This document shows positions 16,852 to 52,594 of a stretch of DNA of 64,000 nt, piece by piece (position 1 is the stretch's first letter; each line of letters begins with the position of its first letter). The notes under the pieces are model-generated. The model was not told the origin of the DNA. It searched no databases and saw nothing but the letters and a program-made list of their open reading frames with translations. Source of the stretch: an uncultured Armatimonadetes bacterium (GTDB lineage Bacteria > Armatimonadota > UBA5829 > DTJY01); contig OY970325.1 of NCBI GenBank assembly GCA_963717145.1, forward strand, positions 2,848,001 to 2,912,000, read 5' to 3'. The translations under genes and the position numbers were made by a program.

Positions 16852-16935
16852 CACTCCCGTACTCCCACACTCCCACACTCCCACTCTCCCACACTCCCAC
16901 ACTCCCATTACTCCCATACTCCCCCACTCCCACCC
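16852..16935. repeat. octamer tandem repeat (ACTCCCAY)n
   Basis: About 10 degenerate units; same unit at 19127, 30700 and 49920. Confidence 0.85.
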
Positions 16936-19127: not shown

Positions 19128-19207
19128 GGAGGGAGTATGGGAGTGTGGGGGTATGGGAGTATGGGAGTCCGGACACCCATACCCCCACACTCCCATACTC
19201 CCACACA
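19127..19207. repeat. inverted octamer tracts
   Basis: (GGGAGTRT)n followed by (AYACTCCC)n. Confidence 0.8.
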
Positions 19208-20163: not shown

Positions 20164-20220
20164 ATGCCGGAACATGAAGCTGAATGGAAGGACTGGAAGC
20201 CAGCTATGGAGAGAGCATGA
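20164..20220 (+). other. 18-aa leader ORF coupled to mod; possible hsdR N-terminal remnant
   Basis: AGGAG RBS, MPEHEAEWKDWKPAMERA; its TGA overlaps the mod ATG (ATGA). Confidence 0.4.
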
Positions 20221-22139
20221 AGAGCAACTACGATCATCTATCCAAAGAGGACCTGGTCGCTCAGCTTATCAAACGGGATTCGGAGCGAAAGCTGGGCTTG
20301 GTGTGGGAACGTGATCAGATCGAACACGAGCGTGCCCTGAACAATGATTTCGTGGCATTGGATCTTGTCCCGGAGCTCTCGGTGGGCGTTGCCCCATACC
20401 CGGACCTTCTTATCGAAGGCGACAACTTCGATGCCCTTCGGTACCTCCACATTGCATACAAAGGCCGGGTCAAGTGCATCTACATCGACCCTCCGTACAA
20501 CACGGGCAAGAATGATTTCATCTACAACGATAAGTTTGTCGATGAGGAAGACTCCTTCCGGCACTCGAAATGGCTGGAGTATCTCTTCCGGCGTCTCGAC
20601 CTAGCCAAAGACCTGCTGACGGACGATGGTGTGATCTTCGTGTCCATCGGCGAGACGGAGTATGCCAACCTTTCCCTCCTGATGGAGCAGATCCTCCCAG
20701 GCATGCGAGTCGGCACGTTTGTTTGGCGGCGTAGGAGTGGCGCAAACGACGCCAAGGAGTGGTTTCTGAGTGTCGATCACGAGTATGTGCTCTGTTATGC
20801 GAACAAAGGCTTCTCCTTCGCAGGCCAGGCGAAGAACCTGGGTGCGTACAGCAACCCGGACAACGACGAGCGAGGCGACTGGAACAACGACAATCTCGTC
20901 CAGGGGAAGAACTACAAGCAACGCCCCGACGCTTACTACTCCATGGTCAACCCGGAAACAGGTGTCTGGTACCCATGCGACCTGGACAACACTTGGCGTT
21001 TCGCCACCGAGGCACGGCTTCAGAATGGTAAGAAGATACGGACCAAGCCTATGGAGCAGATCATCGCAGAGAAGAGAGTTCTCTGGCCCAACGATGAGGA
21101 GACTGTTGTCTACAACACTGTGGCGGAACTGAAGCGGGCCATTGATGAGGGGAATGCCCCCAAGAACCTTCGAGTCTACCTGACTCTTGATGAGCTTCGC
21201 GAGCAGGTTGAGGCAAAGCAAGCTCCTGAGAGACTCCTTGGCTATATCGAGCCTCTGGAGAACTGGGTCGGTCGCGAGATCGGCTACGGCAAACCGCGCT
21301 ACAAGCGATTCCTCTGCGATCTGAAACGCACCGAGAGACCCGTGTCGACCTGGGTCCTTCCTTCATCCATCAAGAAGGAAGACTTGGAGATGCTCGACCT
21401 CGGCGAGGTCGAGGCTTTTCAGGTTGGGTTTACGAGTGAAGGGACAACGCTGCTGAACCAGATGATCGGCAACAAGGATTTCTCCTATCCCAAGCCCCTA
21501 AGCCTTCTAAAGTCGCTCATCGCCCAAGCCACGGATGCTGAATCGGGTCACATAGTGCTGGACTTCTTTGCGGGGAGTGGGACTACCGCACACGCGGTGA
21601 TGGCCTGTAATGACGAGGATGGCGGTAATCGGTCGTATATTCTGGTTTCGTCTACCGAGTCCACCGAAAAGGAACCGGATAAGAACGTCTGTCGGGATAT
21701 CACCACGAACCGTCTGCGAGCTGCGATAGACGGGTATTCGTATAGGGCACCGAAGGGAACTGTGGCCGTCGAGGGGCTTGGCGGCGAGTTCGCCTATCTA
21801 CGGACTCGGCGGATACCATTCGAGTCCCTCTACCTCGACATCCAGCATGATCAGATATGGTACGCATTGCAGCTCCTACACACCAGTGGCATTGCTCCGT
21901 ATGTCGCGCATGCGCCCTACCAGGAACGCGAAACAGATGCTGGGAATGTCGTCTACATTCCCGAACTCCAATCGCCCACGCTTGAGGCCATCCTGGAGAT
22001 AGCCAATGCCGCCCTCTCTCCGCTTGTGGTCTACACATGGCAGCCAGGACTGCTAACGCAGAGCATATACAACGAGCAAGTCTGCATCGAACCGATCCCT
22101 GAGTATCTTATCCAAAGGTTCGGGAGAAATGCGAGATGA
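20217..22139 (+). CDS. mod: type III R-M methyltransferase (Mod, beta class)
   Basis: LIEGDN, IYIDPPYNTG, HSKWL, YPKP..L, DFFAGSGTT. Confidence 0.9.
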   Translation: MKSNYDHLSKEDLVAQLIKRDSERKLGLVWERDQIEHERALNNDFVALDLVPELSVGVAPYPDLLIEGDNFDALRYLHIAYKGRVKCIYIDPPYNTGKNDFIYNDKFVDEEDSFRHSKWLEYLFRRLDLAKDLLTDDGVIFVSIGETEYANLSLLMEQILPGMRVGTFVWRRRSGANDAKEWFLSVDHEYVLCYANKGFSFAGQAKNLGAYSNPDNDERGDWNNDNLVQGKNYKQRPDAYYSMVNPETGVWYPCDLDNTWRFATEARLQNGKKIRTKPMEQIIAEKRVLWPNDEETVVYNTVAELKRAIDEGNAPKNLRVYLTLDELREQVEAKQAPERLLGYIEPLENWVGREIGYGKPRYKRFLCDLKRTERPVSTWVLPSSIKKEDLEMLDLGEVEAFQVGFTSEGTTLLNQMIGNKDFSYPKPLSLLKSLIAQATDAESGHIVLDFFAGSGTTAHAVMACNDEDGGNRSYILVSSTESTEKEPDKNVCRDITTNRLRAAIDGYSYRAPKGTVAVEGLGGEFAYLRTRRIPFESLYLDIQHDQIWYALQLLHTSGIAPYVAHAPYQERETDAGNVVYIPELQSPTLEAILEIANAALSPLVVYTWQPGLLTQSIYNEQVCIEPIPEYLIQRFGRNAR

Positions 22140-24634
22140 GTAGCCAGACGCTTCCGAAGGCATTTCAGCAGGAGTGCATAGATAACGCGTTCAGTGTCCT
22201 CTCAACATGCTTGGACAACATCGACAAGATTGCTGGAACCCCGAATGAGCCTTCCAGCAGGGAGCTGATAGTTGCCCGCAGCGGCAGTCTGCTCTTTGAG
22301 GCCCCGACTGGCACAGGCAAGACCCTCATGGCAGGTAACACCGTCGAACTGTTGAGTCTCAAGTATGACATCGTCTGGTTCTGGTTTGCGCCGTTCGCAG
22401 GTCTGATCGGTCAGACTCGGAAATCGATCAGAGGCGAATTCAGAAACCTGCGGGTGAAGGACCCGACAACAGATAGGTATGTGGAAACCGCCAGGTCTGG
22501 AGATGTGTTTGTCACTACATGGCAGAGCGTAGCAGTGGCCAACAAGGCGAGCCGTAAGGTCCGGCAGGACTCAGAAACAATGCTTTCCATCGATGTGGCG
22601 ATCAGCCGACTAAGGTCTCTCGGCTTCCACATAGGGGTTGTCATCGACGAAGCCCATCACTCCTTCAGAGGCAATACGCAGGCATTCTCGTTCTACCAGG
22701 ATGTGCTCTCGCCAGATGTCACTATCCTGGCGACCGCCACCCCTCGTGACCGCGACATCGAGGAGTTTGTCACGAAGACCGGGATTGCTCATCTAAGCCG
22801 CATTTCAGTATCTCGGAGCAGAGCCGTTGAATCCGGGCTGATAAAGAAAGGTGTCAAGGTCGCCGTATTCAAGGCGACGCAGACTGGAGTTCAGAGTCTC
22901 ATCAACTTCAAGCGGACCGCGCTGCAGTGCGCCGTCACAACGCATAGCAAGCTGAAGCAGGAGCTATCGGATGCCGGGCACTCCGTCGTTCCACTCCTGT
23001 TGGTCCAGGTTGATTCTAGCCCTGGCAGCGTAGAGACCGCAGTGGATTGGCTTCGTGAACTTGGTTTCACCGGTGAGCACCAAGTGAGTACCCATACTGC
23101 AGACGAACCGGATCCCCACTTGCTGGCCCTGGCGCAGGATGAACGAGTGGAGGTCCTGGTTTTCAAGATGGCAGTGGCAACGGGATTTGACGCCCCTCGG
23201 GCGTTTGCTCTTGTTTCCATGCGAACATCGAGAGATGCTGACTTCGGCACTCAGATTGTTGGCCGTATCATGCGAGTCGACCGCAGGCTGCAGGGAGCCG
23301 CCGACCTCCCGGAAACCCTGCAGTATGGTTACGTCTTCCTGTCGGACAACGCATCGCAGGAAGGACTCACCACTGCGGCACAGCGCATGAATGCGGTCAG
23401 GGATGAGTTGGCGGACGTTACAGATAATGTGGCTGTTGTGACCGTCGGTGAAGAAGGCCCTACCGCACAGATGACAGGCAGGGACGGGCAGACGTATCTG
23501 TTCATCCCCGTTCGGCCGGATATCGGCGAGTCCACCGAGCAAGAGGGTCGATCAGGCACCCACGTGTCGCCTGAGGTCCAGATTCTCGAAGGCTTCAACT
23601 TGATCGGCACTACCCACGCAGACAACGGCAACGGGGGCTCAGTAACCACACCGGGGACCGTCGTGGTATCGCCCGGGCAATACCGCTATCCTCTTCGGAC
23701 CGATCTGTCGTTTCCCAGGCGATTCAGGCGCGCGATTGTATCCTCGGACCAGACGAACCTTCTAGATGAGGTCCTAAGCCTGTTCCGATTCGACGACGCG
23801 CTCGTCCACACCGCGCAGCAGATTTCGACCAAAATACTCATGGAGTTGCTAGAGATATTCGGCAACAAGTCTGACCGCCCAAAGGAGATCCAAGCGGCGC
23901 TTGCCCAGCGTGAGATCGGCATTCAGGCTCAGCTCACCTTGATCTCTTTCAACGAGGATGGCCTGCTCGATATCAGGGCGCTACATAGGGCGTTGGGTGA
24001 ACAACTCAACAGAGAGCTGGGCAATCGCGGATTGCCTCATTTGGAGGAGGGACAGCCGCTACGGGATGGCGTAGACAAGATCCTGGCGCTCCGTCCAGCC
24101 AGTCTCAAGGAGGCGATCGTTGAGGCAACAAGACGCCATGTTGAGAGCCAGGAAGCAGCGGACATTCCCGAGGACCTATGCAGCACAAGAGAACTCGCTC
24201 TATCGCGCTTCAACATCTACGGCGTGTATCCCGAGGGTCTGAACACCTGGGAGGTCGCATTCGGTGAGCTATTGGACGCGGACCTGTCCGGGACCGTTCT
24301 ATGGTGGCACCGGAACCCTTCACAGAAGCCATACTCAGTTTGTACGCCGCTACCGGGCCAGATTCGTCAGAACAACTACTACCCGGATTTTGTCGTTGGC
24401 ATCAAGGGCAGAGCCCGTCCGGATAATATCCTTCTCGTCGAGACTAAGCGGGTACTAAACGACGAAGAGGGCAACGCCAGGGCGAAAGCTCAGATCGAGC
24501 ACCCAGACTACAAGAAAGTCATGATGCTCTACTGGGAGCGGGAAGAGCGGTGGATGGTAGTGGAGTATGATGCCACACAGGATAGGAATGTCCCAGATCG
24601 TGTATGGAGGACTGGATTGATGGTTGCTTTCTAG
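22136..24634 (+). CDS. res: type III R-M restriction subunit (SF2 helicase plus PD-(D/E)xK nuclease)
   Basis: EAPTGTGKT, IDEAHH, TATP, GFDAPR, QIVGRIMR, YYPDF...VETK; 4-nt overlap with mod. Confidence 0.85.
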   Translation: MSSQTLPKAFQQECIDNAFSVLSTCLDNIDKIAGTPNEPSSRELIVARSGSLLFEAPTGTGKTLMAGNTVELLSLKYDIVWFWFAPFAGLIGQTRKSIRGEFRNLRVKDPTTDRYVETARSGDVFVTTWQSVAVANKASRKVRQDSETMLSIDVAISRLRSLGFHIGVVIDEAHHSFRGNTQAFSFYQDVLSPDVTILATATPRDRDIEEFVTKTGIAHLSRISVSRSRAVESGLIKKGVKVAVFKATQTGVQSLINFKRTALQCAVTTHSKLKQELSDAGHSVVPLLLVQVDSSPGSVETAVDWLRELGFTGEHQVSTHTADEPDPHLLALAQDERVEVLVFKMAVATGFDAPRAFALVSMRTSRDADFGTQIVGRIMRVDRRLQGAADLPETLQYGYVFLSDNASQEGLTTAAQRMNAVRDELADVTDNVAVVTVGEEGPTAQMTGRDGQTYLFIPVRPDIGESTEQEGRSGTHVSPEVQILEGFNLIGTTHADNGNGGSVTTPGTVVVSPGQYRYPLRTDLSFPRRFRRAIVSSDQTNLLDEVLSLFRFDDALVHTAQQISTKILMELLEIFGNKSDRPKEIQAALAQREIGIQAQLTLISFNEDGLLDIRALHRALGEQLNRELGNRGLPHLEEGQPLRDGVDKILALRPASLKEAIVEATRRHVESQEAADIPEDLCSTRELALSRFNIYGVYPEGLNTWEVAFGELLDADLSGTVLWWHRNPSQKPYSVCTPLPGQIRQNNYYPDFVVGIKGRARPDNILLVETKRVLNDEEGNARAKAQIEHPDYKKVMMLYWEREERWMVVEYDATQDRNVPDRVWRTGLMVAF

Positions 24635-24644
24635 ATCGTTCATC

Positions 24645-24782
24645 GGAAGAGGCTCGACGTAGGGGAGCAGAGGGGGGCGCACCTACGAGCCCGCCTCCAT
24701 CCTCCTCGCCCGCATCCGCCAGGAACTCGCGGAGCAGGAAGCATCGAAGCCGAAGCGCGGGAAGGGCAGAAGCACATGCTAG
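24645..24782 (+). pseudogene. hsdS: C-terminal remnant of a type I R-M specificity subunit
   Basis: RTYEPASILLARIRQELAEQEASKPKRGKGR then TAG at 24780-24782; EPAS.LL.RI plus basic tail is a typical HsdS end; no start codon in frame. Confidence 0.65.
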
Positions 24783-24854
24783 CTGTATTGGCCCCGGTAG
24801 ACGGTGGGGAGAATTCGTCTCCATCTGAGCAGTTCGTTCATGAAGGGAGATAAC

Positions 24855-25304
24855 ATGGTCTGGCTTGAAATGTGGGCATTCGGTATGGCGTTTTTGACAC
24901 GTAGCGCGGTAACTGCAGGTATCGTCGCGCTAGTCGCCTATCTTATCTGGGCGAAGATCAAGGAGGACGCATCTCCCAAGAGCAGACACGGAACGGCCAT
25001 CTTCTTGGCAGCGTGGCTCGTGACCCTTGCCTTTATGGCCTTCGGCCAGGGGCGTACGCTCTTGGCAGCGCATTTCATCGATGGTACTTCCGCAGAGACT
25101 GTGGCTGCCTCTCTGCCAGCCGCACAGGCCCAGGCCTCCGGCATGGCGATCAGGCATGTGCTCCCTGCTGCCATAGTGTTTGGTCTTGTCGCCACGCCGC
25201 TTCGGCTGATCAGACGGCGATGGGTGCAATGGTTGGTCGCCATGGCCGCCTACGCCAGCCTATGCACCTACTTCGGCTTCCTGGATTCTCTCCTCGCGGC
25301 ATGA
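24855..25304 (+). CDS. hypothetical 4-TM membrane protein
   Basis: RBS AGGGAG; four hydrophobic segments. Confidence 0.65.
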   Translation: MVWLEMWAFGMAFLTRSAVTAGIVALVAYLIWAKIKEDASPKSRHGTAIFLAAWLVTLAFMAFGQGRTLLAAHFIDGTSAETVAASLPAAQAQASGMAIRHVLPAAIVFGLVATPLRLIRRRWVQWLVAMAAYASLCTYFGFLDSLLAA

Positions 25305-25360
25305 TTCGTAGTGACCCGCAAGCCGGCTGGTGAGAGCATCGTAGATAAGGGGCAAAGAGA

Positions 25361-26329
25361 ATGATAGTACCGAAACTCGGGCGGTTGGAGAATATCGACC
25401 TACGAAGCGTCTTCAACTCGGAGAGTCAGGCCTTTACGCCCTGGCTTGCTCAGAGCGAGAACCTCGCGCTGCTTGGCGAGCGCATCGGCCTCGCCCTCGA
25501 TCTTGAATGCACCGAAAAAGATGTCGGGCCGTTCAGGGCCGACATCCTCTGCAAGGATTCCTCCAGCGATGCGTGGGTGCTGATCGAGAACCAGATCGAG
25601 CGCACCGACCATGCCCACCTCGGGCAGCTTCTTACCTATGCCGCTGGTCTGGAGGCAATCACGATTGTCTGGGTCGCGCAGAAGTTCACTGAAGAACACC
25701 GCGCGGTCCTCGACTGGCTGAACGAGCGGACCGACGATAAGATCAACCTCTTCGGGCTCGAAGTGGAGCTGTGGCGAATCGGCGAGTCCGAAATCGCCCC
25801 CAGGTTCAATGTTGTCAGCAAACCGAACTACTGGACGAGATCGGTCAAGCAGGCTGCGGAGGGAAAGATCACCGAACATAAGCAACTACAACTCGACTTC
25901 TGGACAGCCTTCCGCGAATACATGGAGAAGAACAGCAAGATCAAGTGCCAGAAGCCCTCTCCACAGCACTGGATGAACCACGCCATCGGCACGAGCGGTG
26001 TGGGACTAAACTCGATCATATCAACCTGGAATTCCGAATCTGAGCGTTTCGACGATCCTGAACTTCGGGTTGAGCTCAGTCTTCACGATGCCGACGCGAA
26101 GGAGAGATTTGCCGCATTGGAGAGCAGGAAGTCCGAGATCGAGCAGAAACTCGGGATGTCGCTCACATGGCACAATCCGGAGGAGAAAAACTCCTGCCGT
26201 ATCTACACGCGCATCGACGGAGACTTCCGGAACCGGTCGCTCTGGCCCGAACATCACGCATGGCTTAGAGAGAACCTGGAAGCGTTCCAGAAGGTCTTCG
26301 CCCCGCTGGTCAAGAGCTTCCAGAAGTGA
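25361..26329 (+). CDS. DUF4268 domain protein with N-terminal PD-(D/E)xK (NucS-like) nuclease fold
   Basis: E...FTPWL, ADIL, IENQ..TDH.HLGQLLTYAAG; C-terminal FW..F and LE..K.EIE..LG..L.W. Confidence 0.8.
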   Translation: MIVPKLGRLENIDLRSVFNSESQAFTPWLAQSENLALLGERIGLALDLECTEKDVGPFRADILCKDSSSDAWVLIENQIERTDHAHLGQLLTYAAGLEAITIVWVAQKFTEEHRAVLDWLNERTDDKINLFGLEVELWRIGESEIAPRFNVVSKPNYWTRSVKQAAEGKITEHKQLQLDFWTAFREYMEKNSKIKCQKPSPQHWMNHAIGTSGVGLNSIISTWNSESERFDDPELRVELSLHDADAKERFAALESRKSEIEQKLGMSLTWHNPEEKNSCRIYTRIDGDFRNRSLWPEHHAWLRENLEAFQKVFAPLVKSFQK

Positions 26330-26491
26330 TTCCGGCCCGCTCCCCCCATGTCCGGTCTCATGGGCGGGCGGGAAACGGGGGGAACGGCCTTCCTTGTTCG
26401 GTCATGTCGCCTCTTGATTGTGATCCCGCCGGAGTGCGCCGAGCAGGGCTAGCAAGTGCCGCATCACGTGCTAGCTTCTCGGAATCGGGTA

Positions 26492-26500
26492 TGGTATACT
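26492..26500 (+). promoter_or_regulatory. extended -10 promoter
   Basis: TGGTATACT about 40 bp before the ATG at 26542. Confidence 0.5.
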
Positions 26501-26541
26501 GTCATTGAGAAGGGGGGCTGACCACACTGATTCACCCTGCA

Positions 26542-27522
26542 ATGCGCGACATCTATCAACGCCTAAGAGAGCAGAAGTTCGACGCCGCTTTCGTGAGGAA
26601 GTACATACTTCCTGAGTGGTGGGAGGACAAGCTTGCCGAGATTCCGGCGAACCGCCAGTACGCCGAAGCGGTCATATCTCGTCAACTCGGCATAGAGATG
26701 TCCAGCCTCAGAGACAAGGATGCGCCCCTCAAGTTCCGCCCGGCAGCGCAGTTCAAGCTGAAGAGCAGAGGCGGCGCGACCGCGAGCGATCTCAGGGTGG
26801 CCCGCATACTCGGGGAACGCATCGCGAAGATTGCGGCCTCCACGCTGGAGACGAAGCCCGACCTCGGCGATCTCGACGCCTCCTCCATCCGGCAGACGAT
26901 ACTCGCGTCCGGTGCGAAGTGGGTGGGCTTTCACGAACTCCTCGATTTCTGCTGGAGCATCGGCATTCCTGTGGTTCACCTGTGTGCAAAGCTGCCCACG
27001 GGAAACAAGAAGCCTGATGCAATGGCGGTCTGGACTGAAGAACGTCCGGTTATCGTCATCGCGTCCGGCAAGACGCACCCTGCCTGGCACATATTCATCA
27101 TCGCCCATGAACTAGGGCATATCGCGCTCGGCCATCTCTCGCAGGGGGAGGTCAGCATCGATTCGGCAGTGGAGTTCGACTCCGGTGTGAGAGAAGAGGC
27201 AGAGGCGAATGCATTTGCGGTCGAGCTTCTCAGCGGAGATCCCGATCTCCGTTTCAGCCCTCCACCGCGCAGGATCAATGCGCGCGGGTTGGCCGCAGTT
27301 GCCGTCTCGATCGGTGAGAAGCTCTGCATCGATCCCGGCTTTCTCATGCTCAGCTACTCTCGCAGCCAGGCCTTCTACCCGCTGGCCCAAGCCGGACTCA
27401 AGGTCCTGAGTTCGGAGGCGAATGCCTGTCGCCTGTACCAACAGCCATACGAACTACTGAGCATTGACGAGATGACCGAAGATAACCGGCATGTATTCGA
27501 GTGCCTCACGGAGGCCGCGTAG
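26542..27522 (+). CDS. ImmA/IrrE (M78) Zn-metallopeptidase
   Basis: FIIAHELGHI (HExxH) and EAEANAFAVELL; no obvious XRE HTH. Confidence 0.85.
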   Translation: MRDIYQRLREQKFDAAFVRKYILPEWWEDKLAEIPANRQYAEAVISRQLGIEMSSLRDKDAPLKFRPAAQFKLKSRGGATASDLRVARILGERIAKIAASTLETKPDLGDLDASSIRQTILASGAKWVGFHELLDFCWSIGIPVVHLCAKLPTGNKKPDAMAVWTEERPVIVIASGKTHPAWHIFIIAHELGHIALGHLSQGEVSIDSAVEFDSGVREEAEANAFAVELLSGDPDLRFSPPPRRINARGLAAVAVSIGEKLCIDPGFLMLSYSRSQAFYPLAQAGLKVLSSEANACRLYQQPYELLSIDEMTEDNRHVFECLTEAA

Positions 27523-27527
27523 ACTCC

Positions 27528-28163
27528 GTGGGCGATCTCATCTTCGCGGATAACGATATCCTGCTGAAGCTTGCAGAGTACGACCTGCTGCAACACGCCT
27601 GCACTGCTCTATCTACCACTCCCTCCAGTATCAGATTCCAGCCCGCCACAAAGCATGTGATCCTCCACATGCGGGACAAGGCGATCAAGGGCAAGGAGTC
27701 GCCGTATTCCCAGAGGGCATTCGATCGGGCGATCGCCTTTGTCGAGAGCGCGTCCTACCCCACAGATCGCCCCAATATCGACTGGGCGGAGGGCAGCGAG
27801 GGTATCGACTTCGGCGAGGCGCAGTTGGCGAGTTGGGCGGTCGAGGCGGATGACAGCCTCCTCCTCACCGGCGACAAGCGCTTCATGAAGGCCCTGGCGG
27901 GTTCGCCCGCGGCGAGGCACATCTTCGATGGACTGCGTGGTCGAGTGGTATGTCTGGAAGAGATTCTGCGGGCGATTATGCGTACAGATGGAGTGGATTG
28001 CGTCCGCAAGGCGGTGAAGCATGCTCCGAAGTGCGACCAGGCGATAAGCTTCGTCTTCGGCAGCCGGTTCGATCTCCCGGACGAGCAGGTGTGGGATGGA
28101 ATCGACAACCTCCTGCGGGAGATCACGGCGATAGTCGGCGTCGGCTGGCTCAGGCGTATCTAG
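27528..28163 (+). CDS. PIN-like domain protein (putative RNase toxin)
   Basis: GTG 5 nt after peptidase stop; acidic motifs ADNDILL, IDFGEAQL, LLLTGDKR. Confidence 0.6.
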   Translation: MGDLIFADNDILLKLAEYDLLQHACTALSTTPSSIRFQPATKHVILHMRDKAIKGKESPYSQRAFDRAIAFVESASYPTDRPNIDWAEGSEGIDFGEAQLASWAVEADDSLLLTGDKRFMKALAGSPAARHIFDGLRGRVVCLEEILRAIMRTDGVDCVRKAVKHAPKCDQAISFVFGSRFDLPDEQVWDGIDNLLREITAIVGVGWLRRI

Positions 28164-28223
28164 CCGTAGATGCCGGTCTTCGGTGATCAGTAGCCTGTGG
28201 GCCTGCGGGAGTCAGCCGGACGT

Positions 28224-28483
28224 GTCACTTCCGCGGAAGTGACGCCTTGGTTCTGCAGTAAGTGCCCACCTCTTCTGCTGTCGGTGCCCACCTCTTCTGC
28301 TGCCGGTGCCCACCTCTTCTGCTGTCGGTGCCCACCACTTCTGCTGTCGAGGCCCACCACTTCTGCAGTCGGAGCCCTACTCTACTGCAGTCGGAGCCCT
28401 ACTCTACTGCTGCCGGAGACCATCACTTCTGCGGTCGATGCCCACCACTTCTGCAGTCGGTGACCATCACTTCCGCAGTCGGA
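28224..28483. repeat. 20-bp perfect palindrome followed by 10+ degenerate 22-bp tandem units
   Basis: GTCACTTCCGCGGAAGTGAC at 28224-28243; units start every 22 nt from 28251 to 28471, typical unit TTCTGCTGTCGGTGCCCACCTC. Confidence 0.92.
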
Positions 28484-28682
28484 AGGCGTCCGGGAGTGAG
28501 CGGACGGTGTCCCGACGGTAGAGAGTACTGATTCCGGACTTAGTAATTCTAGGTTCAGCAACCGCAAATATACGGCTGGTACCCTGAGGTTACCGGGATG
28601 AACCGCCGACAATGATATACGGGCGGCTAATCTGTAACACAAGCCGCCCGAGGTTCTTGTGGGAGTTCACAGTCAAGGATAG

Positions 28683-28858
28683 CGGATGTCATTCTGAGCG
28701 GAGTACTGCGTCGCAAGCGCAGTTGTTTCCGCCGGAAGGAAACTCCCAACTGGGTGGGCGGGCGGGTACAAACTCCGGGAACCGGCCGCCGCATCCGGAG
28801 TTTGTACCCGCCCGCCCACCCAGTTGGGAGTTTCTTTCTCGGGAGCGAATGACATCCG
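28683..28858. repeat. nested inverted-repeat element
   Basis: 12-bp outer IR CGGATGTCATTC/GAATGACATCCG around a perfect 40-bp stem (28739-28778 with 28795-28834). Confidence 0.85.
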
Positions 28859-28926
28859 TGTGGACTCACAGGGATCCTGATCGATCTGTGTCGGAATGAC
28901 ACATCGGAGACACTGGAGGTGTCAGA

Positions 28927-29604
28927 ATGTCTGATTACTTACCAAACAAGGATGTTGATTTGCAGCTATGGACGGCCCGGTTTGTGGCCTATGTGAGTTC
29001 GAACCTGGCTCACCTGGGCCTCGTGGCGGGGGATATAGTCGACCTGGCGGCCGCCGAGCCGGAGTTCAGCGGCGCGCGCATTGCGCTCGATACCGCGTAC
29101 ACTGCCTACAAAAGCGCCCTCTCGGAGAGGGACCTCAGGCGCGAGTCGCTGGTCGATGCAATCAGGCCGCTGGTCGCCCGCATCCAAACCAACCCTGAGA
29201 CGACGAATGTCGATCGGGAGGCAATGTGGATCCCGCTCAGAGGCAATGCGCCGTCCGCTCAGACCGTTGCAGAGGGATCGCCGGATAGACCGACCGCCAG
29301 CATCGACATCCGGGCGCTGCTCACGCATACGCTCCGCATCGAGAACACGGATGGGACCACCACGACTAAGGGGAAACCCGAGGGCGTGAAGGCGGTCGAG
29401 GTCTGGGTCAAGGTCGGGGAGCAGCCGACGGGAGAGCCCGAGACGGACATGCGGTATGTGAACATGTCGAGCAAGAACACGATGGCTGTGCCGTTCACAA
29501 CCGTAGATGGAAACAAGCAGGCGCATTACAAGTTGCGCTGGGTCTACAAGAACGGCATCAAGGGCGGCTGGTCCGACCTCCAGAGCGCGACGATAGCGGC
29601 TTAG
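28927..29604 (+). CDS. conserved hypothetical protein: N-terminal helical bundle plus C-terminal FN3-like domain
   Basis: RBS GGAGG; DYLP.KD..L..W...F start, KPEGV..VEVW, Y.LRW....G.KG.WS end; no signal peptide. Confidence 0.8.
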   Translation: MSDYLPNKDVDLQLWTARFVAYVSSNLAHLGLVAGDIVDLAAAEPEFSGARIALDTAYTAYKSALSERDLRRESLVDAIRPLVARIQTNPETTNVDREAMWIPLRGNAPSAQTVAEGSPDRPTASIDIRALLTHTLRIENTDGTTTTKGKPEGVKAVEVWVKVGEQPTGEPETDMRYVNMSSKNTMAVPFTTVDGNKQAHYKLRWVYKNGIKGGWSDLQSATIAA

Positions 29605-29608
29605 GGGG

Positions 29609-29703
29609 GATGGTTGATGGTTGATGCCGGAGATGGTTGATGGCTGATGGCTGATGCCGGAGACCGGAAACCGCAGACGAATGCGGATTGGGGAATGCGG
29701 AAT
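29609..29703. repeat. heptamer tracts (GATGGYT)n and GAATGCG units
   Basis: Directly visible; same heptamer at 40878-40980. Confidence 0.7.
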
Positions 29704-29761
29704 ATGCAGACCGCCGACCAAACCGCAGAGGCACAGAGAAGACAGAGGAATAGGAAGAATC

Positions 29762-29797
29762 GGGCGGGGCGTTTCGGCGCTCCCGCCCTCTTTTTTT
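29762..29797 (+). terminator. intrinsic terminator
   Basis: GGGCGGGGCG-TTTCGG-CGCTCCCGCCC stem followed by T7. Confidence 0.75.
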
Positions 29798-29821
29798 CAT
29801 TACCAGACCCCGATCCGGAGA

Positions 29822-29913
29822 ACCCCACCCCAGCCCTCCCCGCAACGGAGAGGGAGCACCCCCGCCAGCCGCGAGCAGCTCCCTCTCCGTTGCGGGGAGG
29901 GCTGGGGTGGGGT
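29822..29913. repeat. palindromic repeat family B copy
   Basis: CCCTCCCCGCAACGGAGAGGGAG and CTCCCTCTCCGTTGCGGGGAGGG arms. Confidence 0.9.
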
Positions 29914-29961
29914 CTCCGGATCCGGAATGCGTCCGTTCCCTACATGGCATCGAAGCCACCT

Positions 29962-30636: not shown

Positions 30637-30829
30637 GAACACAGAAGCACGGAAGCAGAGGAAGCACAGAAAGGACTTCTTATCGGGAAGCCGGGAACGG
30701 GAGTGTGGGAGTATGGGAGTGTGGGAGTCCGGAGATCGAGTCCCATTCCCTTCTTGTTTTCCTGAATTCCTGGTTTCCTGCTATACGCCTTTTTCCGTGT
30801 GATCCTCTGCCATCTGTGTTATCTGTGTT

Positions 30830-37627: not shown

Positions 37628-37826
37628 CTCCATTCCCTGTAGGGGCGAGCCTTGTGCCGCCCCCTACCATCTCCATTCCTGTAGGGGCGTGCCTTGTGCC
37701 GCCCCCTACCATCTCCATTCCTGTAGGGGCGTGCCTTGTGCCGCCCCCTACCATCCCCATTCGTGTAGATGCGAGCCTTGTGCCGCCCTCATCATCTTGC
37801 TGGGCGGCGCAAGGCACGCCCCTACA
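37628..37826. repeat. GTAG-type REP cluster, 42-bp tandem units plus one inverted copy
   Basis: GTAGGGGCGWGCCTTGTGCCGCCCCCTAC three times, a degenerate fourth, inverted copy at 37802-37826. Confidence 0.88.
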
Positions 37827-49919: not shown

Positions 49920-50008
49920 GAGTATGGGAGAATGGGAGTATGGGTGTGTGGGAGAATTGGAGTGAGGCGATACGATCACCCCCACACTCCCATACTCCCA
50001 TACCCACA
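49920..50008. repeat. inverted octamer tracts
   Basis: (GGGAGTAT)n then (ACTCCCAY)n. Confidence 0.75.
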
Positions 50009-50018
50009 TACATGAGAA

Positions 50019-52427: not shown

Positions 52428-52594
52428 GTAGGGGCGACCTTCGACGGTCGCCCGCGGGAGGCCATTGAAGGCCTCCCCTACGGTGCGCGAGCGGGAGGCC
52501 GTTGCAAGGCCTGCCCTACGGTGCGCGAGCGGGAGGCCGTTGCAAGGCCTGCCCTACGGTGCGCGAGCGGGAGGCCGTTGAAGGCCTCCCCTAC
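52428..52594. repeat. GTAG-type REP cluster, ~38-bp tandem units
   Basis: GCGGGAGGCC...AAGGCCT.CCCTAC four times, preceded by an opposed GTAGGGGCGACC copy. Confidence 0.85.

Follow-up and report, generated by a model that had tools for sequence, protein, structure and literature searches.

Tandem arrays with a period of about two DNA turns accompany a family of helix and FN3 genes in an uncultured Armatimonadetes bacterium

The R6K iterons are 22 bp direct repeats that lie beside a gene, some of their units following one another without spacers, and parC of R1 and pSK41 and sopC of F are tandem arrays that are read by the product of the adjacent gene. Operators of the LytTR and AraC type are likewise made of direct repeats, which have a centre-to-centre spacing of ~21 bp and lie upstream of promoters. 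An element comparable to these systems is present in a stretch of 64,000 nucleotides from an uncultured Armatimonadetes bacterium (assembly GCA_963717145.1, contig OY970325.1, positions 2,848,001 to 2,912,000; this whole stretch is called the window, and positions refer to it unless the genome is named). It consists of a non-coding tandem array with a period of 22 bp, followed by a gene for a 225-aa protein with a helical N-terminal domain and an FN3 domain. The array and the gene are one copy of a recurrent module, the gene family having 25 copies on the same 5.37-Mb chromosome, and the arrays may be phased rows of DNA sites for a reader protein.

The resemblance to the R6K iterons, to which an earlier note on this DNA had pointed, does not extend further, as the locus is chromosomal, has no Rep initiator or origin context, is present in 25 copies and neighbours a helix and FN3 protein; no Rep gene was found, and the 225-aa protein had no counterpart in a tblastn search of plasmid and phage collections. 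The likeness to parC and sopC lies in the position of a tandem array directly upstream of a gene and in its locus-specific sequence, whereas none of the 25 copies stands beside a ParA/ParM-type NTPase or a ParR/ParB-type protein, and the encoded protein is acidic. The LytTR operators differ in that the genome, which is 98% complete, has no LytTR domain.

The nearest working analogue is provided by the BvgA~P sites at the Bordetella promoters Pptx and Pfha; BvgA~P binds Pptx as six head-to-head dimers that are 22 bp apart on one helix face (PMC7250471). The likeness consists in dyad-type sites at a spacing of 22 bp (two turns), and individual BvgA sites are possibly weak as well, like the dyads of the present array, the arms of which are 4 bp long. 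In contrast, the BvgA sites form no true tandem repeat and abut the -35 element, whereas here the array ends 101 bp before a promoter-like motif. Furthermore, BvgA is one NarL/FixJ-type regulator that serves many promoters (PMC7250471), whereas here each locus has its own unit and the genome offers only 8 GerE-type matches.

BrickBuilt of Porphyromonas gingivalis is described (PMC4596501) as an intergenic minisatellite MITE, a miniature transposable element with inverted repeats, that has a repeat of ~23 nt, inverted-repeat ends and promoter activity, and it shares with the present array the build of a spacer-less intergenic tandem repeat. According to the same source, one BrickBuilt sequence recurs at 19 loci beside unrelated genes, whereas the unit of the present array is locus-specific and belongs to one gene family: a BLAST search placed it at only two sites in 5.37 Mb, here and at genome 546374-546477. 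This count sets the array apart from a dispersed minisatellite MITE or variable-number tandem repeat (VNTR), and the possibility raised in the earlier note, that the 22-mer is an ordinary VNTR found genome-wide beside unrelated genes, is thereby refuted. The array is also distinct from a clustered regularly interspaced short palindromic repeat (CRISPR) array, in which repeats are separated by unique spacers, because its units abut with 0% indels.

Array and gene form a recurrent module

Upstream regions were scored as periodic when their top autocorrelation period was 21, 22, 42, 43 or 44 bp with a score of at least 0.65, and 1500 random 900-bp windows of the genome served as controls. Such periodicity was found in 22 of the 25 paralog upstream regions and at 16 of 18 homolog loci in the related genomes G001, G005, G006 and G010, compared with 15 of the 1500 random windows. 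The three remaining paralogs are par07 (period 24), par23 (period 41) and par14, which has no array. Tandem Repeats Finder detected arrays with a period of 21, 22, 24 or 41-44 bp at about 60-700 bp upstream of the start codon in 20/25 paralogs. Genome-wide, 57 arrays fall into this period class, 19 of which lie within 900 bp upstream of an open reading frame (ORF) of the family, and a twentieth is located inside an open frame ahead of par19. Since the family upstream regions make up ~0.4% of the genome, about 0.24 arrays would be expected there by chance. The sequence of the unit differs between loci, and the 25 paralogs have no neighbouring gene in common apart from the family itself and antisense shadow ORFs, which applies to the M78-peptidase pair upstream of this locus as well. 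The proposal that array and gene constitute an undescribed module is thus borne out, and the collection of homologs with a tandem repeat scan of their flanks, which the earlier note had called for, revealed a strong enrichment of arrays of the same period. Full-text literature searches returned no description of an array joined to a helix and FN3 gene, and the main text of one Geobacter genome paper (PMC2700814) does not contain the module.

The arrays are non-coding, as none of the 16 arrays with a period of 21 or 42 bp displays a codon-phase signal, and periods of 22, 43, 41 and 24 bp co-occur within one family. What is conserved is the period, and the sequence is variable.

The family of the gene is large and widespread and has no name. 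None of the 25 copies found by a six-frame search of the chromosome is interrupted by an internal stop, and a profile built from these paralogs of 24-60% identity retrieves exactly these 25 ORFs at E<1. Among 5.8 billion protein clusters, a word-indexed search gave only 14 relatives, 6 of which come from this genome, the 225-aa protein itself included. By profile scan, 1.84 billion representatives yielded 6555 matches at E<=0.001 and 688 at E<=1e-30, and the records that were looked up carry the name "hypothetical protein" or none. Members are present in five of 30 relatives (13, 5, 2 and 2 copies and one partial match) and, in a wider sample of the phylum, in 9/81 genomes, this one included. 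The homolog contigs that were looked up are mostly ~1 kb long. For annotation, it is relevant that the arrays break short-read assemblies, and open frames that run through arrays may account for the N-terminal extensions of some library homologs.

At this locus, Tandem Repeats Finder describes 10.5 copies with 84% matches, 0% indels and a score of 240. Printed in register, the array consists of ten full units and one partial unit that abut without spacers, and units 2-4 and 6-7 are most alike. The consensus unit is TTCTGCAGTCGGTGCCCACCAC, which is GC-rich, lacks A-tracts and contains the weak internal dyads CTGCAG and GGTG..CACC. An imperfect inverted repeat of 27 nt (28216-28242 and 28467-28493) encloses the array, which ends 444 bp before the ATG of the gene, and the GC content decreases slightly past it, from 0.627 to 0.577.

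Just ahead of the array lies a perfect 20-bp palindrome (10+10), which scores as terminator-like for the upstream gene that ends at 28163. Comparison with the rest of the genome identifies this palindrome as the relic of a unit of a sister array type with 43-bp units. Units of this type at genome 459592-459915, 546484-546997 and 1805383-1805672 have GGGAGTCAGCCGGAG and an ACTTC..GAAGT palindrome in common, and the stretch 28196-28250 also matches genome 546348-546389 in BLAST. The 43-bp unit type builds the array before the closest paralog, par01 (60% identity), and further arrays at 546484 and 1805383; the other copy of the 22-bp unit (546374-546477) likewise adjoins a 43-bp array. Because par00 and par01 have relics of one unit type, array and gene must have been duplicated together, the arrays having diverged later. 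Units are also shared between par10 and par12.

The second site of the 22-mer belongs to a composite orphan array at genome 546348-546997, which combines a palindrome-like unit, 4.7 copies of the 22-mer and twelve 43-bp units. It has no adjoining family gene and is flanked by a GHL10 gene and a dispersed hairpin repeat.

The 225-aa protein matches no family in Pfam, PHROGs or NCBIfam. Its structural model has a predicted local distance difference test (pLDDT) score of 89 and contains helices at residues 9-25, 34-88 and 94-100, and an FN3 sandwich begins near residue 118. As regards the absence of a signal peptide stated in the earlier note, the N-terminus is acidic and helical in the model. 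When the domain of residues ~118-225 was compared with known structures by VIA-align, the best match was 6rpx_A (Z = 11.2, root-mean-square deviation of 2.1 over 92 residues), followed by many FN3 chains, and Foldseek gave a best E of 1.3e-4. The Pfam fn3 family was not matched at E<=0.01. As modelled, the C-terminal domain has an ordinary FN3 fold, a seven-strand beta-sandwich. For the N-terminal domain, modelled by itself with a pLDDT of 93, Foldseek gave no significant fold match (best E = 5.1).

A homodimer is predicted in which the chains pair antiparallel along the long helix, with a score of 0.70 compared with 0.00 for the best of three controls. The runs agree in at least 91% of the contacts, and the partner pLDDT is at least 85. 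The 0.70 mark was reached by 20/30 proteins solved as one-chain pairs and by 1/23 single chains, counts that are rough only, since a self-made alignment was used as input. The paralogs are mostly acidic, with a median isoelectric point (pI) of 6.0 overall and 5.5 for the N-terminal domain, and do not look like DNA binders. In addition, most paralog C-termini are ATIAA, LAA, LVA or GG, and the tag encoded by the tmRNA gene (genome 169206-169558) ends in YALAA. A reading of these ends as degrons is weak, because an AA ending occurs in only 48/149 library homologs.

Arrays as candidate rows of DNA sites

The best reading of the array, with a probability of about 0.5, is that its units are DNA binding sites, phased in a row beside a promoter-like motif, for a reader protein. 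The module would comprise a non-coding tandem array, a promoter-like motif specific to the family, a leader, the gene for the putatively dimeric helix and FN3 protein and a terminator. The period of the array would be held at about two DNA turns (21-22 bp, or 42-44 bp as double units), leaving the sequence free to change at each locus, and the phased sites, many of them with a short dyad, would be bound cooperatively on one helix face by a reader protein, which in its bound state would set the expression of that particular paralog. Binding of a protein, promoter function of the motif and an effect on transcription are inferred. Most units do contain a short dyad, and in 16/21 dyads the centre is only 0-2 nt long, which is too tight for an RNA loop and would suit a dimer on DNA.

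The promoter-like motif is bipartite. The sequence C(C/G)A(T/C)AAT is found within 420 nt upstream of 19/25 paralogs in the sense orientation and of 1/25 in antisense, and it is preceded by CCTnnAG at a fixed distance of 23-24 nt. Throughout the genome, the bipartite pattern with a spacer of 17-19 nt has 171 matches, compared with 110-128 at control spacers, and 12 of the 171 are located ahead of family members. We infer that the motif may be the promoter of a dedicated sigma factor. A general -10 function of CGATAAT-type sequences was ruled out, as these are non-directional genome-wide, and a motif match near the array beside a LarA gene was not counted, as it lies 382 bp away inside a large ORF.

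Promoters of sigma-54 have a -24/-12 consensus of GG-N10-GC, and the genome contains two rpoN (sigma-54) genes (genome 2168979-2169425 and 245951-246367). A sigma-54 promoter, which an array of sigma-54 upstream activating sites would require between itself and the gene, was rejected for the family, since the highest -24/-12 scores ahead of the 25 paralogs did not exceed those of 3000 random windows; this locus has no -24/-12 candidate.

Two layouts of the module exist. In subfamily A (par00-par14), the array lies on the upstream side of the motif, at a distance of 26-142 bp. The order is reversed in subfamily B (par15-par24) and at several loci of the relatives, where the array fills the stretch between the motif and the ribosome-binding site. 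No model offered here explains both layouts simply; one possibility is activation or looping from upstream by a bound protein in the former and a roadblock formed by it in the latter.

Arrays of the same class are not confined to the family. About eight more 21-bp dyad arrays adjoin other genes, among them those for LarA, a NanM-SSF fusion, a GH99-like protein, a beta-helix/NosD-like protein and GHL10, and 21-22-bp arrays away from family members were located at genome 571408, 895089, 1161107, 1189080, 1285229, 2306615, 4826975 and 546374. Some cores are common to both groups: TACAC..GTGTA, the dyad of par15, is found again at 895089, as is the core of par08 at 4716195. These shared cores hint at small regulons, each with one family member, an arrangement that fits a trans-acting reader or, equally, a family protein acting in trans.

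Several observations weigh against the reading as a phased row of binding sites. The LytTR domain (PF04397) has 0 matches in the genome, and the control genomes were matched; furthermore, only 8 GerE-type and 6 OmpR-type matches face at least 25 unit types. Variant cells amount to 116/1200 (9.7%) in dyad arms and to 194/1936 (10.0%) elsewhere (Fisher p = 0.76), the arms being the less variable part in 13/21 arrays, and the dyads of the present array are weak in themselves. The motif is possibly no promoter at all, as it is not directional across the genome, with 166 sense and 172 antisense occurrences before 2550 large ORFs. The place of the array relative to the motif changes between the two subfamilies, and the gap at this locus keeps the array from abutting a -35 element in the manner of the BvgA sites. 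Finally, distant homologs within the phylum pass the periodicity threshold at only 2/10 loci, the top period being 21 or 42 at 6/10. The array and gene association is therefore very strong in this lineage and, further off, reduced or less easily seen.

One NarL-type or OmpR-type regulator for each array was considered and rejected, because such proteins are too few and their counts are unlinked to the family copy number across 31 genomes.

Should a protein read the arrays, these would represent a widespread and unnoticed cis element that is defined by helical phase rather than by sequence, attached to a large family of 6555 library representatives with no functional name in those looked up. 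The genome is also a convenient test bed: the units differ among its 25 copies, the shared promoter-like motif and the array occur in two layouts, and sister arrays precede carbohydrate-related genes. Identification of the reader would account for the arrays as well as for the protein family, and could provide orthogonal operator and reader pairs.

Other explanations of the arrays

It is possible, if rather unlikely, that the helix and FN3 dimer itself reads its own array, as in the ParR/parC and Rep/iteron pairs, which would serve autoregulation or chromosomal tethering. Specificity encoded in cis would fit the presence of one array type per paralog, the linkage in cis and the joint duplication of array and gene, and the classical regulators are too few for one per array. 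Moreover, the predicted homodimer has a two-fold symmetry that would suit dyad sites. The mostly acidic proteins argue against it, as do the absence of a DNA-binding family among the Pfam, PHROGs and NCBIfam matches, an N-terminal domain without a significant fold match next to a C-terminal domain that is an ordinary FN3 in the model, and the occurrence of same-class arrays before unrelated genes with no family member beside them. A broader form, in which each module would be a self-addressed pair and recognition, by the dimer or by a reader recruited by it, would be limited to the array of that module, is doubtful to a similar degree. If true, it would mean dozens of orthogonal array and protein pairs per genome, 25 of them here, that act as separately switched, insulated genes or as docking addresses, and hence a new kind of programmable DNA-protein recognition system, undescribed so far.

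Somewhat less probable still is a role of the array as RNA, either as a repeated structured element of a long leader or as a protein-binding RNA. Transcription of the array would follow from the layout of subfamily B and several loci of relatives, where it stands between the motif and the ribosome-binding site. Inverted repeats are present in many units, and a stable hairpin follows the motif in several paralogs. In subfamily A, this locus included, the array is nevertheless upstream of the motif, and the tight dyad centres speak for DNA. Mismatches in the dyad arms are G-T in 26 cases and A-C in 21, which means that there is no wobble bias on the sense strand and no sign of selection for RNA hairpins, so that the RNA role allowed for in the earlier note gains no support from mismatch asymmetry. 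In addition, a strict two-turn period would have no obvious meaning for an RNA, and the window has no match to an Rfam family at or above the gathering score of that family. Genes for tRNA or tmRNA are likewise absent from the window.

A structural role, in which in-phase bends independent of sequence would create a curved or supercoil-sensitive stretch, or a pad for nucleoid proteins, that modulates the promoter, is improbable. It would readily account for a period that is conserved when the sequence is not, for dyad arms that are no better conserved than the spacers between them and for the lack of a matching set of specific regulators. However, the tie of the arrays to one gene family and the dyad in most units would be left unexplained, the units of this locus are GC-rich without A-tracts, and periods of 22 and 24 bp would drift out of phase over ten units.

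Array turnover is visible between close relatives. Two species of one genus differ in copy number (9.7 and 8.8), and distinct unit variants have spread within each array, differences that reflect concerted evolution. The orthologous arrays of G005 and G010 come from genomes with 92-93% gene identity, which are too close for a selection test. Least probable of all is a functionless minisatellite, prone to slippage, that was passed on with every duplication of the gene and kept uniform by concerted evolution. Such a minisatellite would agree with the likeness of neighbouring units, the turnover, the lack of detectable selection on dyad arms and the 836 tandem arrays that score at least 50 in the genome. 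However, it should hardly hold one period, or persist, at 22/25 old paralogs, and the observed period stays at 21-22 or 42-44 bp among paralogs of 24-60% identity and in five genera, in spite of units that have diverged beyond recognition.

Leader, 3' region and surroundings

The features of the locus are collected in Table 1. Apart from the array and its palindrome, the earlier note had listed an AT-richer stretch, a small hairpin, a nested inverted repeat with a 40-bp stem, the 225-aa gene, its ribosome-binding site and a terminator, and all of these, along with the palindrome, the indel-free array and the likeness of units 2-4 and 6-7, are present.

Table 1. Coordinates of the array, the gene and associated features in the window
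Feature	Position	Strand	Remarks
Single relic of a 43-bp-type unit	28206-28247	+	CGGGAGTCAGCCGGA, then 20-bp palindrome 28224-28243
22-bp-period tandem array	28251-28482	+	Non-coding; Tandem Repeats Finder
Fragment like the start of a second 43-bp-type unit	28490-28509	+	CCGGGAGTGAGCGGACGGTG; directly after the array; compared by eye
Bipartite promoter-like motif	28583-28613	+	CCTGAGG-17 nt-CGACAAT; 101 bp downstream of array end
Small GC hairpin	28621-28649	+	-18.5 kcal/mol, z = -3.9 relative to shuffles
Nested dispersed palindromic repeats in leader	28683-28858	.	Outer arms 28683-28694 and 28847-28858
Ribosome-binding site	28915-28919	+	GGAGG; 8 nt before ATG; read from sequence
225-aa protein gene	28927-29604	+	ATG start; helical N-domain and FN3 domain; one of 25 paralogs
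Heptamer-type short tandem repeats	29609-29678	+	GATGGTT, CCGGAGA; just past stop codon
Intrinsic-terminator-like element	29762-29797	+	GC stem and seven-T run; read from sequence

The small hairpin begins 8 nt past the promoter-like motif, and its loop, CTAATCTG..CAAG, is kept in the three closest paralogs par00, par01 and par02. In BLAST, the stretch 28600-28660 matches the par01 leader only.

In the nested inverted repeat, the outer arms are 12 nt long and 100% complementary, and the inner arms (28735-28778 and 28795-28838) are 44 nt long and 98% complementary, with one mismatch followed by 40 perfect pairs when aligned by eye. By BLAST, 10 genome places carry the inner 104-bp palindrome and 13 the stretch with the outer-left arm. 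The leader of par03 has identical outer arms around a different inner hairpin. This repeat is thus a dispersed mobile palindromic repeat that landed in the leader and has no connection with the module, which does away with the idea that it forms a structured leader. It resembles repetitive extragenic palindromic (REP) elements, bacterial interspersed mosaic elements (BIMEs), REP doublets forming hairpins (REPINs) and MITE palindromes, as does the palindrome at 29800-29930, both being found at 10-29 genome places each; this comparison covers the leader inverted repeat and not the 22-bp array, and within the module the REP/MITE-like character belongs to the leader repeat only.

GGAGG sites similar to that of the 225-aa gene are found ahead of most paralogs. 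Heptamer repeats like those past its stop codon also follow the stop codons of par01, par04, par08 and par09, and the stretch 29600-29700 has BLAST matches at 17 places, including genome 460951-461093, 525017-525062, 481145-481183 and 4663745-4663771. Having been seen after several subfamily-A paralogs, the heptamer repeats may be part of the 3' end of the module. The terminator-like stem was not listed by a simple terminator scan, its loop being perhaps above the limit of that scan. Beyond it, the large REP/REPIN-like palindromic repeat at 29800-29930 is present at 29 genome places.

Upstream of the array, the window contains a row of genes (20184-28163) for an N6/N4 DNA methylase, a type III restriction Res-like helicase and a DUF4268 protein, which continues with an M78-peptidase/repressor-like protein and its 220-aa partner (phrog_15597). 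This row resembles a defence island and is unrelated to the array module. The edge of a defence island, where the earlier note had placed the module, is therefore incidental, like the leader structure, as the 25 paralogs share no neighbouring gene; the array and gene module itself is real.

The genome as a whole is very rich in short tandem repeats, with peaks at periods of 7, 8, 14, 16 and 21 bp, and 8-mers such as GGGAGTAT are often arranged in opposed pairs around genes. Within the window, short tandem repeats are present, for example, at 16852-16933, 19131-19206, 30693-30728 and 49920-50011. In addition, arrays of hairpin units, 42 bp at 37628-37788 and 38 bp at 52454-52594, comprise 3.8 copies each. 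The units at 37628-37788, like those of similar 40-44-bp arrays elsewhere, occur at more than 100 other places and form a class distinct from the gene-linked 21-22-bp arrays.

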